This document shows positions 390 through 64,000 of a DNA stretch of 64,000 nucleotides, piece by piece. The position numbers and the translations under genes were made by a program. The DNA is taken from the NCBI RefSeq assembly GCF_000027125.1, contig NC_017626.1; one strand, 5' to 3'. Within the stretch, counting starts at the first letter, position 1. Each line of letters opens with the position of its first letter. The notes under the pieces were generated by a model. It worked only from the letters and a program-made list of their open reading frames with translations, ran no database searches and had not been told where the DNA came from. The DNA is from Escherichia coli 042 (GTDB taxonomy: Bacteria; Pseudomonadota; Gammaproteobacteria; Enterobacterales; Enterobacteriaceae).

Positions 390-1516
<1,127 letters not shown>

Positions 1517-1645
1517 AATTTGCGATGCGTCGCGCATTTTTGATGTAAGTTTCACGCGTTGCATAATTAATGAGATTCAGATCACATATAAAGCCATAAC
1601 GGGTTCGTAAACTGTTATCCCATTACATGATTATGAGGCAACGCC

Positions 1646-3641
<1,996 letters not shown>

Positions 3642-8979: not shown

Positions 8980-9978
8980 TTATTTCTTGCTGAATTCAGC
9001 CAGGTTATCTTTGTCTACGCCAACATAAGGTACGCGGACCACTTTGTTGTCGATTTTCCAGTTGGTGCCATCAGCCGCACCTTTGCCATCGGCCAGGTTT
9101 TTCGCCAGATCAAAGGTCGCTTTAGCCTGGTTGTTAGCATCGTTCAGTACGGTGCCCGCCAGTGCACCGGATTTCACCAGCGCCAGCGCTTCTGGCAGCG
9201 CATCGACGCCAAACACCGGAATGCTGGACTTGTTGTGTGCTTTCAGAGCTTCTACCGCGCCCATTGCCATCGCGTCGTTGTTGGCGATAACCACCTCGAT
9301 TTTGTTGGCGTTCGGGCCAGACAGCCAGGCGTCCATCTTATCTTTCGCCTGAGCGGTATCCCACATAGCGGTATCTAACTGTAACTGTTCAGTTTTAATG
9401 CCTTTGTCGTTCAATTCTTTAATCACGTAAGTGGTACGTGCTTCTGCATCCGGATGCCCCGGCTCACCTTTCAGCAGTACGAATTGAATCTGACCGTCTT
9501 TGTTCAGATCCCAACCCTGATTCGCCGCCCAGTGTTTAGCAATCAAATCGCCCTGAATAATGCCGGACTCTTTGGAGTCAGTGCCAACGTAGTAGGCTTT
9601 GTCGTAGCTATCCAGCGCCTTACGAGACGGTTCTTTGTTGAAGAAAACCACCGGCACGTTTTGCCCACGCGCTTTCTCAATCACCGTACCCGCAGCTGCC
9701 GGGTCAACCAGGTTGATTGCCAGTGCCTTCACCCCTTTCGCCAGCAATACGTCGATCTGATCGTTCTGCTTGGACTGGTCATTCTGAGAATCATTCATCA
9801 GCAGCTGAACATCTGGCGCGGCTTTCGCATCTTGCTCAATAGCCTTGCGCACTACAGACATAAAGTTATCGTCGTACTTATAGATTGTTACACCAATGCG
9901 AGTATCAGCAGCGTGTGCAGCGGCACCGAATAACATGCTGGCCATCACAGCAGATAGGGTTAACACCTTCTTATTCAT
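8980..9978 (-). CDS. mglB: D-galactose/D-glucose periplasmic binding protein
   Basis: 332-aa ORF with signal peptide [23 protein letters not shown]. Confidence 0.9.
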
Positions 9979-11439: not shown

Positions 11440-12597
11440 TTATCTTGATGTTTTAGATATTGCTGGTCCGGCAGCACGCAAAGTTAACTGACGCCAGAGC
11501 CATTCCACCGGCCCCTGGCGGAAGTAACGCAGCCAGATAACAGAGAAGAGAATATTCGCCAGCCATACCGGAATAACAAACGCCAGCAATTCCAGACGGT
11601 CAAACTGCATAAACAAACCGAGGTGATAAAAAAGCGTGGTACAAATCAGCGTTTGCAATAGATAGTTGGTCAGCGCCATCCGTCCGACGCAGGCGATCGC
11701 AAGCACCAGCTTAAAGCGGCTCAATTGCGGCCAGAAGCCATAAAACAGCGACGCATAGCCAATCGCCTGAAACGGCGCACTCAGTTCCCGCGGCATTTGA
11801 AGTAAGAATGCACACCAGCGATACGCCCAGTCCAGTCGCCATTGCAGGGCGATGGCAGGAAGGTTAATGATCACCCCAATCGCCACCAGCACAAAACCAG
11901 TACGACGATAGTGACGTAAGCTGAACTGCCCTTTCAGCCAGCCGCTGCGCATCAGCGCCGCACCAATGAGCATCATCCCTGCCAGTTGCCAGCCATACTG
12001 TGCGCCCAGTGCCAGTAAACTGTTGCCAACACCGTCGGCACGATTACTGATCGCTTCAACGCCGCCGTGAAGCTTCCAGTATTTTTCATACAAAATAGCC
12101 GATGCATCCGGCGTCCAGGCGCGGCTGGTCTGGCTGTCGGAAATCAGCCCCAATAACATCAAAACGCCAAGCCCCACCAGATAAAGCATGACGCCTGTAT
12201 TAAACAGGCTTTTTACCGATGGCGCATCGCGCACCAGCCGCCAGCAGATTAAGCCCACCAGCCCGTAAGCCAGCAGAATATCGCCGTCCCAGAACAATAA
12301 ACCGTGAATAAAGCCCAGCAAGACTAACAGCGTTAACCGCGACTGGATCCAGCGTCTGCCACGGGGCAGCAACATTTGCAGGCCAGCACCAAACAGCAGC
12401 GCAAAAAGCGTGAGGAATTTCACCTGGCCGATGAGATCGAGAAATGCCCAGGTCCATGCATCCTGCGGCGTAATAGCGCCGTACCAGGCGGGATTGAGAT
12501 AAGCCGCCTTTGGTAGCCCAAAGGCGCTGATGTTTAATAGCAGGATCCCCAGAATGGCGACGCCGCGAACAAAATCGAGCGTGACGTTGCGCTCCAT
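11440..12597 (-). CDS. yeiB: DUF418-family inner-membrane protein
   Basis: 385-aa polytopic membrane ORF; synteny. Confidence 0.75.
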   Translation of the reverse strand: MERNVTLDFVRGVAILGILLLNISAFGLPKAAYLNPAWYGAITPQDAWTWAFLDLIGQVKFLTLFALLFGAGLQMLLPRGRRWIQSRLTLLVLLGFIHGLLFWDGDILLAYGLVGLICWRLVRDAPSVKSLFNTGVMLYLVGLGVLMLLGLISDSQTSRAWTPDASAILYEKYWKLHGGVEAISNRADGVGNSLLALGAQYGWQLAGMMLIGAALMRSGWLKGQFSLRHYRRTGFVLVAIGVIINLPAIALQWRLDWAYRWCAFLLQMPRELSAPFQAIGYASLFYGFWPQLSRFKLVLAIACVGRMALTNYLLQTLICTTLFYHLGLFMQFDRLELLAFVIPVWLANILFSVIWLRYFRQGPVEWLWRQLTLRAAGPAISKTSR

Positions 12598-22522: not shown

Positions 22523-23773
22523 TCAAGCTAAACCAATAAAGAACCCGGCAATGGTCGCACTCATCAAGTTGGAAAGCGTCGCCGCCGCCAGCGCGCGTAA
22601 ACCAAGCTGGGCGATTTCCGGCGCACGGTGTGGCGCAACCGCAGAAAATGCGCCAACCACCACCCCGATAGAACCAAAGTTAGCGAAACCGCACAACGCG
22701 AAAGAAATAATCGCCACGGTTTTAGCATCCAGAGTGCCAGCTGTTTGCAGATAAGGTGAGAAATTGAGGTAAGCGACAAATTCATTTATTGCCAGCTTCT
22801 GTCCAATCAAACTCCCGGCAAGATTCGCATCACTCCAGTCAACCCCCATCACCCATGCCAGTGGAGCCAACAGGTAACCTAAAATGGACTCCAGCGAGGC
22901 ATGTTCAAAACCAAACCAGCCGCCAACGCCGCCGATAATACCGTTAATCAACGCAATTATTGCAACAAATGCCATCACCACTGTCGCCACACCTGCGGCG
23001 ATTTTCAGCCCGGTCATTGCCCCTGTAGCGGCGGCTTCAATAATGCTTTTTGGCGGTGTTTCGGTGAAAGAGAGGTTATTAAAGGAAACCTGCGAAGATT
23101 CCGTAGCCGGGCTTAACAGGCGGGCAAACAAGATCCCGCCGGGGATCGCCATTAACGATGCCGCCAGCAGATATTCCACAGGCACGCCCAGTGCGGCGTA
23201 ACCAATCATTGTCGAACCAGCAATCGAGGCCATGCCACTACAAATCGCTGTAAATAATTCATTGCGATTCAGACGATCGATAAAGGGTTTGACGATTGCC
23301 GGAATTTCGTTTTGCCCGAGGAAAATGGTTGTGACCGCGACGAATGACTCGATCTTGCTGATATTCAATGCTTTCTGGAATATACCGCCGAGAATGCGAA
23401 TTAAGATCCCCATCACACCGATGTAGTAGAGAATACTCACCAGTGCAGTGACGAAGATAATTGCCGGTAATACCCTGAAACCAAAGATAAATCCTGCGCC
23501 ATCAAATAAGGTGTCCATTTTCGGTCCGACCAGAGAACCGAAGATAAAAGCGCTACCTGCATCGCTGTACGCCATCACTTTATGCACGCCAAAAGCGACT
23601 TTTTCTGCGACCCAACGCCCTGGCGGTAACCAAAGCATAATGCCGCCAATCACGACCTGTAACACTAACGCCGCGCCAACGGTACGCAGGCTGATCTTCT
23701 TCTTGTTTACTGACAGCAAAAACGCAATTGCCAGCAATACCACCATTCCCAGAACACTTCTCATGACATCCAT
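22523..23773 (-). CDS. nupX: NupC-family nucleoside permease
   Basis: 416-aa membrane ORF; close paralogue of psuT in the same window. Confidence 0.85.
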   Translation of the reverse strand: MDVMRSVLGMVVLLAIAFLLSVNKKKISLRTVGAALVLQVVIGGIMLWLPPGRWVAEKVAFGVHKVMAYSDAGSAFIFGSLVGPKMDTLFDGAGFIFGFRVLPAIIFVTALVSILYYIGVMGILIRILGGIFQKALNISKIESFVAVTTIFLGQNEIPAIVKPFIDRLNRNELFTAICSGMASIAGSTMIGYAALGVPVEYLLAASLMAIPGGILFARLLSPATESSQVSFNNLSFTETPPKSIIEAAATGAMTGLKIAAGVATVVMAFVAIIALINGIIGGVGGWFGFEHASLESILGYLLAPLAWVMGVDWSDANLAGSLIGQKLAINEFVAYLNFSPYLQTAGTLDAKTVAIISFALCGFANFGSIGVVVGAFSAVAPHRAPEIAQLGLRALAAATLSNLMSATIAGFFIGLA

Positions 23774-62517: not shown

Positions 62518-62798
62518 GTATGATTCACGACAGCAAAGCGGAAGATCTGGAGGCTAAAGGCCTGTACCGGAGAGCGGCAGCCCGATGGGCTGAGGTCATG
62601 CAACAGGTGAACACCGATAAGGAGCGCGAACAGGCAGTAAAGCGTCGCGCGAAATGTATCCACAAGGCAGCACGTTCGCCCGTCATGCTGGATAATTTCG
62701 GGGGCTTGAGAGAGGCAGCAAACCGCACACAGGCGGATATGGGGATAGAAATCGCAAAATCTGTCTGGCGGAACTACCAGACAGACAAGGTTTTATAG
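62514..62798 (+). CDS. PerC-family transcriptional regulator-like protein
   Basis: 94-aa ORF; AEDLEAKGLYRRAAARWAEVM resembles the PerC family signature; start overlaps preceding stop. Confidence 0.5.
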   Translation: MSMIHDSKAEDLEAKGLYRRAAARWAEVMQQVNTDKEREQAVKRRAKCIHKAARSPVMLDNFGGLREAANRTQADMGIEIAKSVWRNYQTDKVL

Positions 62799-62863: not shown

Positions 62864-63064
62864 ATGAACGTTTCGCTGGTGGATATTCTTGACAAGTTGC
62901 AGCCAGGCCGACGCGTGCCAGCTCGCCGCAGTGCCTGGCATCTTCCGTACATCGTCTTTCTCGAACGGCGCGGAAACGATTTGATTGCGTTGAATCCCGT
63001 CACAAAGGATAGCGTTACGCTATCTCCTGAGAGTCTACTAGCCACAGACTGGGAGTACTGCTAA
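62864..63064 (+). CDS. hypothetical small protein
   Basis: 66-aa ORF from ATG 62864 (ORF track begins at TTG 62855); AGGAG upstream. Confidence 0.4.
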   Translation: MNVSLVDILDKLQPGRRVPARRSAWHLPYIVFLERRGNDLIALNPVTKDSVTLSPESLLATDWEYC

Positions 63065-63131
63065 ACACAAACGCATCGAGGGTGCTGGCGTGTTGCCAGC
63101 CCCACCCCCTCCGAAATGATCCCCCAAAAAG

Positions 63132-63349
63132 TGCAAAATGATCCCCCATTAACGAACAGAAAACAAACAAAGAGCAACAAATAATCATTATTTACAATTC
63201 TTGACAAAAACACCCCCTATTTATAACCCTACCAAATTTAAAATTACATCTACAAAACAATAAGTTACAAAATCAGCAACGGATCATTTCGGAAAAAACG
63301 GTTAGTCCCTTTTTCGAAAAGGGATCATTTTGTTGCTTAAACTCATATG
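63132..63349. promoter_or_regulatory. four GATC-containing 9-bp repeats (AAATGATCC) bracketing a promoter-like element
   Basis: Direct copies at 63132 and 63154 (22-bp spacing); inverted copies GGATCATTT at 63300 and 63341; second inverted copy abuts palindrome CCCTTTTtcgAAAAGGG. Confidence 0.5.
63220..63246 (+). promoter_or_regulatory. putative sigma70 promoter
   Basis: TTGACA (63220..63225), 15-bp spacer, TATAAC (63241..63246); no ORF downstream. Confidence 0.35.
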
Positions 63350-63597
63350 CGGATTACATATCAATACGCTAGTGATAGCCGTTCTGGAATGCCACAGAAA
63401 CGCGCTGTAATCGATTCTGGCGCAATTAGCTGTGCTAGGTAATGATTTACCTATCTGGGGATGTTGCGCACGTCTGGATTGCGTTACCACCGAAGATTGT
63501 GCGCATATGGTGGCTGTTACGGTGGCCTCCCGACAACGCAAAATTGCGGCGGCACAGTCGGTTTACCGCGCTAACACGGCTTGATTCACTCGCTCGA

Positions 63598-63742
63598 CTT
63601 GTCCCACCTCCCCCCCCAACTTGTCCCAAAACAGCCTAGACTTGTCCCACCTTACCTAATTTATTTCTAACAAAATCAATTTGTTAGGTGCTGGTGGGAC
63701 AGGTGGGACGGGTGGGACGGGTGGTTTTGTATATATATATAC
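63598..63742. repeat. second iteron cluster with the same core as the primase-proximal ori, plus a (TA)6 tract
   Basis: CTTGTCCCA x3 at 63598, 63620, 63641 (21-22-bp spacing); AT-rich spacer; tandem GGTGGGAC x3 at 63693, 63702, 63711 (9-bp period); GTATATATATATAC at 63729. Confidence 0.55.
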
Positions 63743-64000
63743 GAAAAATTGCATTCAGGAGGGGGGCGAAATTCCTGCAATCCATTACTTATGGAACTGT
63801 CCGCCCCGTCAAATTTTTACGCCCGCGCAATTAAAAAAATGCGTCACGCAGGTGGGCATGATGCCGATATGCTTGTCGGGTTCAGCTTTTTAAGGCGGCT
63901 GTAGATGTCAGGTTATCCGTGCTCATCCACCAGCCAGCTTCATAGCGGATAGCCGGAAAATGGTAACGGTTAAAGCTGTACATTTTTGCAGCAAATCATT

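Follow-up and report, generated by a model that had tools for sequence, protein, structure and literature searches.

PICI-type satellites have been described with a single replication origin located just 3' of rep. In SaPIs, 6-12 iterons lie around an AT-rich centre 3' of rep and are bound by the winged-helix domains at the C-terminus of Rep; the iterons form two opposed sets, and two hexamers of the self-loading Rep helicase of SaPIs and PICIs probably assemble on this layout (PMC9371898, PMC7581432). The origins of Gram-negative PICIs follow the same plan, and in EcCICFT073 rep together with a 3' segment sufficed for plasmid replication (PMC6092414). Another arrangement is found in phage P4, a satellite with a primase-helicase initiator, in which one initiator-binding motif, an octamer, occurs in two separated clusters, ori and crr. 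In the P4 layout, which we checked, crr follows the primase gene directly on its 3' side, near attP, and the ori cluster is 4.7 kb away. The P4 alpha protein is said, in work attributed to Ziegelin and Lanka from 1995, to bind ori and crr via its C-terminal domain, with both sites needed in cis, and it reportedly holds a loop between them. Iteron plasmids offer classic cases of a second array of initiator sites that serves control: P1 incA and F incC are direct-repeat arrays without an unwinding region, their Rep proteins are not helicases, and they serve copy control by titration or handcuffing.

Here, we analysed a 64-kb window (the whole stretch of DNA under study, 64,000 nucleotides) that holds an island of ~8.2 kb in the E. 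coli chromosome, and in it a repeat array at 63598-63742. We propose, with a probability of roughly 0.55, that the array forms the second part (unit 2) of a replication origin with two units and 12 iterons, which belongs to the island's DUF927 primase-helicase, hereafter Pri-Rep. The island lies between tRNA-Pro(GGG) (55837-55913, + strand, by ARAGORN), the 3' end of which forms attL, and a yejO-type autotransporter gene. The tRNA 3' end, CTCTCGTGCC, recurs at the right junction of a homologue (L001, ~22836-22846), and this junction, mapped from L001, which is 99% identical, corresponds to window position ~64085, ~85 bp past the window end.

The gene set of the island comprises a tyrosine integrase (56120-57364, +; phrog_1 integrase, E 2e-72, in agreement with the RefSeq annotation of a homologue), HTH/excisionase-like, Ash, Icd-like and DUF4222 genes, the 712-aa Pri-Rep (59145-61283, +; phrog_1139 DNA primase, E 2.7e-166) and, by PHROGs and RefSeq annotation, the cargo genes ssb (61520-61945, +), a ProQ/FinO-like gene (61981-62517, +) and perC (62514-62798, +). 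Morphogenesis genes are absent from the island, in which the order from int to pri, ssb, proQ and perC is followed by non-coding DNA. Thus, it does not carry the capsid, portal, protease, HNH and terminase genes of its own that define a capsid-forming PICI (cf-PICI), whereas full cf-PICIs share its replication module and carry capsid, protease, portal, HNH, TerS and TerL genes. At 58036-58704, a short Icd-like ORF comes after an Ash-family gene that the RefSeq homologues carry as a truncated pseudogene. The regulatory part of the island may have decayed to some extent, and the island may no longer be inducible.

The array consists of three direct iterons (TTGTCCCAC at 63599, TTGTCCCAA at 63621 and TTGTCCCAC at 63642; 63599-63650, +, spaced by 22 and 21 bp), an AT-rich spacer of 43 bp (63651-63693; 33% GC in the 60-bp window 63630-63689) and three inverted iterons at a 9-bp period (63694-63720, - strand; GGTGGGACA, GGTGGGACG and GGTGGGACG, which on the minus strand comprise CTGTCCCAC and two copies of CCGTCCCAC). 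A TA box, TTTTG(TA)6CGAAAAAT (63724-63750, with the (TA)6 at 63731-63742), follows as a candidate DNA-unwinding element. The direct copies, the AT-rich spacer, the inverted copies and the (TA)6 tract listed in the initial annotation were thus all found where it had placed them. Its statement that the array is outside any ORF holds for annotated genes, since the sole annotation near the array in the RefSeq homologue is a 50-aa hypothetical protein ending at 63584, but does not hold for mechanically called ORFs, which overlap the array.

A first array, here unit 1 (61310-61443), lies directly 3' of the Pri-Rep gene and starts 27 bp past its stop codon. It is composed of two abutting direct iterons, TTGTCCCAC and CTGTCCCAA (61310-61327, +, 9-bp period), an AT-rich spacer (61328-61380; 33% GC in the 60-bp window 61320-61379) and four inverted iterons, GTGGGACAAG, GCGGGACAAG and two copies of TTGGGACAAG (61381-61443, -, spaced by 11, 21 and 21 bp). 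The two units are 2289 bp apart, start to start, matching the ~2.3 kb given previously. The second array had also been called the larger one; however, both hold six iterons, and the first is two-armed as well. In the 64-kb window, TTGTCCCA occurs seven times against 1.83 expected, a count that none of 100 shuffles reached, and all seven copies fall inside the two arrays. The relaxed core YGTCCC is present in six copies per array, 12 in total, with zero elsewhere in the island. The shorter word GTCCCAC showed no significant enrichment across the 64-kb window; therefore, the signal lies in the clustering and in the longer motif.

To place these two arrays among relatives, we compared 87 loci carrying relatives of the primase-helicase, 7 from E. 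coli genomes and 80 from IMG/VR (62-93% identity); the survey covers those two sources, whose loci are related and do not represent independent samples. Seven iteron types were found (TGCGGGTTA, GTGGGTTA, TGTTGGTTCA, CGTGGTTCA, TGTYGTCCCA, the window type CTTGTCCCA and CTTATCCCA), and a single 12-iteron spacing pattern is common to all iteron classes (A, B, C, Cw, D, E and F). In this pattern, unit 1 has two plus-strand iterons at 9 bp, a gap of 58-70 bp and four minus-strand iterons at 11/21/21 bp, and unit 2 has three plus-strand iterons at 22/21 bp, a gap of 54-90 bp and three minus-strand iterons at 9/9 bp, followed by a TTTTGTATATATAC-like TA box. The direct arm of unit 2 is one minus-strand plus two plus-strand iterons, in place of three plus-strand ones, in a variant found in adjacent-type loci. 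Both units of a locus always bear the same iteron type.

The distance between the units is what varies. In 55 of the 87 loci, they are 19-45 bp apart, and both lie within ~310 bp of the stop codon. In 19 loci, among them the window and cf-PICIs, unit 2 is at the right end of the island, 2.3-10.5 kb from unit 1 (2.3 kb in the window type and 7.7-9.2 kb in class-A cf-PICIs). A further 13 loci show unit 1 alone, and their available sequence stops before the island right end. Unit order and orientation are constant in adjacent and split loci, and the genes otherwise keep their order, the cargo block (61520-62798 in the window) coming after unit 2 in the adjacent type and between the units in the split type. 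A reading of the loci L003 and L005 as elements without a second array was rejected, since both ended short of the island right end; for L003, the predicted unit 2 was found in the same genome 10.5 kb downstream, with 21/21 and 8/9 spacing and a TA box. The split form is documented for two iteron types only, A and Cw, and an IMG/VR scan for further split classes with the conserved right-end block (see below) returned 34 matches, all of class A. L005 itself (1071-3494, E. coli strain 181.1) is a cf-PICI with the same replication module that sits inside a prophage terminase large-subunit gene, an arrangement corresponding to the helper-embedded PICI configuration (PMC10111431).

Two arrays of one motif in a single element had been regarded as unusual. 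Among the relatives, in contrast, a two-unit, 12-iteron origin is the rule, with the units contiguous in 55 of 87 loci, and phage P4 ori/crr offers a further case of separated arrays of one initiator motif. The comparison of iteron arrays across homologous islands, which the initial annotation had suggested, showed the repeats to be conserved in homologous elements, so that its idea of an initiator-binding array survives this comparison. In 12 distinct class-A distal units, only 3 of 51 iteron columns vary versus 52 of 108 spacer columns (Fisher P = 3e-8); the iterons are under purifying selection, while the spacers drift.

The closest described counterpart of this design is the SaPI/PICI origin. 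Unit 1 begins, as such origins do, right after the stop codon, and both units have the short iterons, 6-12 in number, in two opposed sets around an AT-rich region. Unit 2 lies immediately 3' of the primase-helicase gene in the 55 adjacent-type relatives but not here, where it is 2.3 kb downstream. Different from the SaPI/PICI origin, the island has two units of unlike design (2+4, and 3+3 plus a TA box) instead of one, and in this island and many cf-PICIs unit 2 is detached, 2.3-10.5 kb off at the right end. No description of a second or distal PICI origin unit, or of a split form, was found in the open-access literature.

The initiator also fits this lineage. Residues 169-436 of Pri-Rep match Pfam DUF927 (E 1.7e-46), and matches in the PDB include 8tch_A, a staphylococcal 'Pathogenicity island protein' (E 9e-15), and 5dgk_A, Cch of SCCmec (E 7e-4). 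By sequence similarity, the helicase core can be assigned to the SaPI Rep/DUF927 (Cch-like) lineage of self-loading helicases (PMC7581432), which is also that of SaPIbov1-Rep. Homology of Pri-Rep (712 aa) to P4 alpha was considered and rejected, no similarity being detectable by BLASTP (best E = 1.3). Besides the initiator, the island differs from P4 in iteron sequence and spacing pattern, and the P4 sites are always apart, whereas the units of the island family are adjacent in most relatives. The proposed island origin is of the PICI/SaPI kind, resembling P4 ori/crr in its two clusters but not being a P4 alpha system.

Which part of Pri-Rep goes with which iteron was evident from the related loci. 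Clusters of the last ~105 residues matched the iteron superclass without exception (85 of 85 loci). Identity to the C-terminal domain of the window protein (residues 608-712, encoded at 60966-61280, +) was 58-90% in loci of the TCCCA class versus 34-47% in the others, two disjoint ranges. Helicase cores that are 96-99% identical carry different iterons, representing natural swaps of the C-terminal domain, and many E. coli relatives match the Pri-Rep gene (84-96% identity) up to nucleotide 1806 only, then diverge and have a different iteron. By comparison, the N-terminal 600 residues, the integrase, the HTH protein, the DUF4222 protein and SSB did not separate by iteron class, their values overlapping. 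This co-variation suggests that the C-terminal domain of Rep determines the iteron recognised, as it does in the SaPI/PICI system. An AlphaFold2 model of this domain had a pLDDT of 45.8, too low to confirm a winged helix, and a profile search of the PDB gave spurious matches only.

The earlier view that the two arrays share one initiator-type motif is supported. Across the 87 related loci, the iteron type of both arrays switches with the Pri-Rep C-terminus and with no other island protein. Because of this co-variation and of the conservation of the iterons, the array is predicted to be a cognate initiator-binding origin unit and not an attachment site, a packaging site or a chance repeat. It is true that the array is ~350-490 bp from the attR core, a position that would suit arm sites for integrase or excisionase, or a site of packaging or partition, near attR. 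However, unit 1, which adjoins the 3' end of pri at 5.4 kb from attL, is made up of this motif too; unit 2 itself is beside pri in the majority of relatives, far from the attachment sites; and the iteron type is independent of the integrase and of the HTH protein. The iterons thus neither flank the att core nor co-vary with the integrase, as arm sites would. It is a different repeat that flanks both attachment sites: TAGTTATAYG, in three exact copies within 52 bp (56036-56087), is distinct in sequence from the iteron and probably represents the integrase arm-type sites, and similar TTAGTTATACG/TTAGATATACG copies adjoin attR in L001 at 22750-22775. For the partition or packaging role that the initial annotation had entertained, co-variation with the C-terminal domain of Rep would not be expected; no partition genes were found in the island by PHROGs or in the RefSeq annotation of the homologue, and we infer that the cos site of the capsid-forming relatives lies in their HNH/TerS region. 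Together, these data make an attachment, packaging or partition site scarcely plausible.

Several features of unit 2 relate to DNA opening. When the 25-mers of the island are ranked by stability, with the least stable first (mean -34.0 kcal/mol, sd 3.3), the TA box comes fifth (-23.6 kcal/mol), the unit 2 spacer sixth (-24.5 kcal/mol at 63657) and the unit 1 spacer eleventh (-25.5 kcal/mol at 61349). The TA box after unit 2 is kept in adjacent and split relatives alike. The unit 2 spacer also contains a match to the IHF consensus, AATCAATTTGTTA (63674-63686), which is a motif match only; this consensus occurs in 22 of 52 distinct unit-2 spacers versus 0.5 expected, and in 1 of 57 unit-1 spacers. 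Several iteron origins are assisted by IHF sites (PMC4980987).

These features bear on whether unit 2 may instead be a control element, namely an array that titrates or handcuffs Rep, a crr-like enhancer, or a Rep-operated promoter with the TA box as its -10 element. P4 crr is an accessory cis site with the same iterons as ori, and P1 incA and F incC, like unit 2, are extra initiator-binding repeats outside a minimal origin and near a rep gene. In addition, a gene starts 20-30 bp past the TA box in adjacent-type relatives, so that the TA box could be a promoter and not an unwinding element. A control array, however, normally consists of direct repeats in a row and lacks an unwinding region, an architecture that unit 2 does not share: it has opposed iteron sets, an AT-rich spacer with an IHF-like site, a TA tract and the least stable DNA of the origin. 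No sigma-70 promoter was detected at the TA box by a consensus scan. In split elements, what follows the TA box is a conserved right-end block of ~140 bp (63751-63890, and at ~9020-9160 in L006, L007 and L008), 87-95% conserved among split-type elements that have different iterons and sites (proL, thiM, yifB and dinD). This block appears neither coding nor RNA-structured, for its indels are not multiples of three, its consensus fold has an unfavourable covariation term with few compensatory pairs, and an Rfam search of the array and the block gave no match at E <= 1. Moreover, a satellite replicating in a burst would not be expected to have tight copy control. We thus consider a control element unlikely.

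A second alternative, that unit 2 is a non-functional relic of recombination, for example the leftover origin of a tandem or hybrid island, draws on two unusual loci. L004 (E. coli FELIX_MS533, same proL/tRNA site) has three origin units, located at 9164-9444 and 11663-11782: unit 1, an adjacent unit 2 and a distal unit 2. The proximal two carry the flank variant TGTYGTCCCA, and the distal unit retains the window-type CTTGTCCCA. L004 is a recombinant: identity to the window is 89.5% in its left part and 97.4% in its right, and its layout resembles a transitional form linking the adjacent and split types. In L106 (IMG/VR UViG_2778261085_000011, upstream of 777-797), the distal unit 2 is decayed, with one of the three inverted iterons remaining and the direct copies mutated; therefore, unit 2 can degenerate or be lost in some elements. 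Against a relic, iteron cores and spacings are kept while the spacers diverge, as the column comparison above shows, and the distal unit always matches the resident Rep domain, in two iteron classes and at least five attachment sites. A relic is thus highly improbable.

It is harder to decide how the two units relate to each other. They may be two independent, redundant origins, each a complete SaPI-type origin firing alone; any spacing would then be tolerated, because the units would need no communication. In keeping with this, each unit alone agrees with the published definition of a SaPI/PICI origin, the spacing ranges from 19 bp to 10.5 kb without change in either unit, and L004 has three units. 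But the two designs do not change (2+4 for unit 1; 3+3 and a TA box for unit 2), the total of 12, the order and the orientation are conserved, and no element was seen in which one unit type is doubled in place of the pair, the additional copy in L004 being of the unit-2 type. The conserved pair and the lack of a doubled unit type suggest that the roles of the units are complementary rather than duplicate. Since the units differ, and since their order, orientation and 12 sites are conserved, we favour one origin of two cooperating units and regard redundant origins as doubtful.

For one origin of two cooperating units, we propose the following mechanism. The island would be induced and would then excise, and the C-terminal DNA-binding domains of Pri-Rep would occupy the iterons of both units, six in each. 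In each unit, the opposed iteron sets around the AT-rich spacer would allow the helicases to self-load as two hexamers. Unit 2, with its IHF-like site, its (TA)6 and the least stable origin DNA, would be the more likely site of melting and loading, and unit 1 would cooperate with it through Rep-Rep contacts. Separated units, here 2.3 kb apart with ssb-proQ-perC between them, would need a DNA loop, as in phage P4 ori/crr. The binding, the melting site, the looping and the need for both units are what we infer from the comparison.

A stricter version of this proposal is that the origin is truly bipartite, that is, that the two units must cooperate, with an MCM-like Pri-Rep bridging distances of 20 bp and of 10 kb alike. 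Unit 1 alone already fits a canonical PICI origin, which is a point against the proposed two-unit origin; given this, and given the rep-plus-3' segment that sufficed in EcCICFT073, unit 2 may be dispensable. We regard strict bipartition as less likely than not. If it is true, the late or cargo module, up to the capsid and terminase genes, would be inside a loop held by the initiator, with unit 2 beside attP; the firing of replication could then be linked with excision or with the state of the packaging module; and the invariant iteron count, 12, would equal that of the DNA-binding domains in a double hexamer.

We found no account in the open-access literature of the two-unit, 12-iteron design or of its natural split variant, where the cargo or packaging module separates the units. 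A large enterobacterial group including cf-PICIs uses this fixed design, and the displacement of one unit, by up to 10.5 kb, has repeatedly been tolerated in nature. The known mechanism is not overturned, but the picture of a single pri-proximal origin is corrected for a widespread satellite group. The natural variants in unit spacing and in C-terminal-domain specificity provide a test set for how MCM-like self-loading helicases recognise and open origins. Minimal replicons or deletions that keep the pri-proximal segment alone may miss half of the origin. In addition, iteron type and C-terminal domain type can be used as a marker of incompatibility or specificity for island classification.

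Further observations concern the right arm of the island, to the left of unit 2. Between perC and unit 2, a 66-aa ORF (62864-63064, +) that carries no annotation in the RefSeq homologue has a PHROGs match, phrog_7206 of unknown function (E 1e-6), and is probably a genuine small gene. Downstream of it, AAATGATCC occurs four times in 63114-63330 (direct copies at 63114 and 63136 and inverted copies at 63281 and 63322) against 0.79 expected, with GATC in each copy. The copies include a perfect 13-nt inverted repeat, TCCGAAATGATCC / GGATCATTTCGGA, and lie on either side of the right arm's most AT-rich part (25-28% GC, 63150-63300). Judged from its sequence, this second set of repeats, whose motif is unrelated to the iteron, is a candidate for a further ori-like or protein-binding structure. 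The 800 bp around it are confined to this island type (116 E. coli genomes). In two genomes, E. coli ECCWS199 and E3 (H135 and H136, near 1.60 Mb), the match is limited to 63374-63600, beside an integrase-type gene; the query ended at 63600, so that these matches reach only the left edge of unit 2. Both loci resemble islands reduced by deletion, with the right-end region retained.
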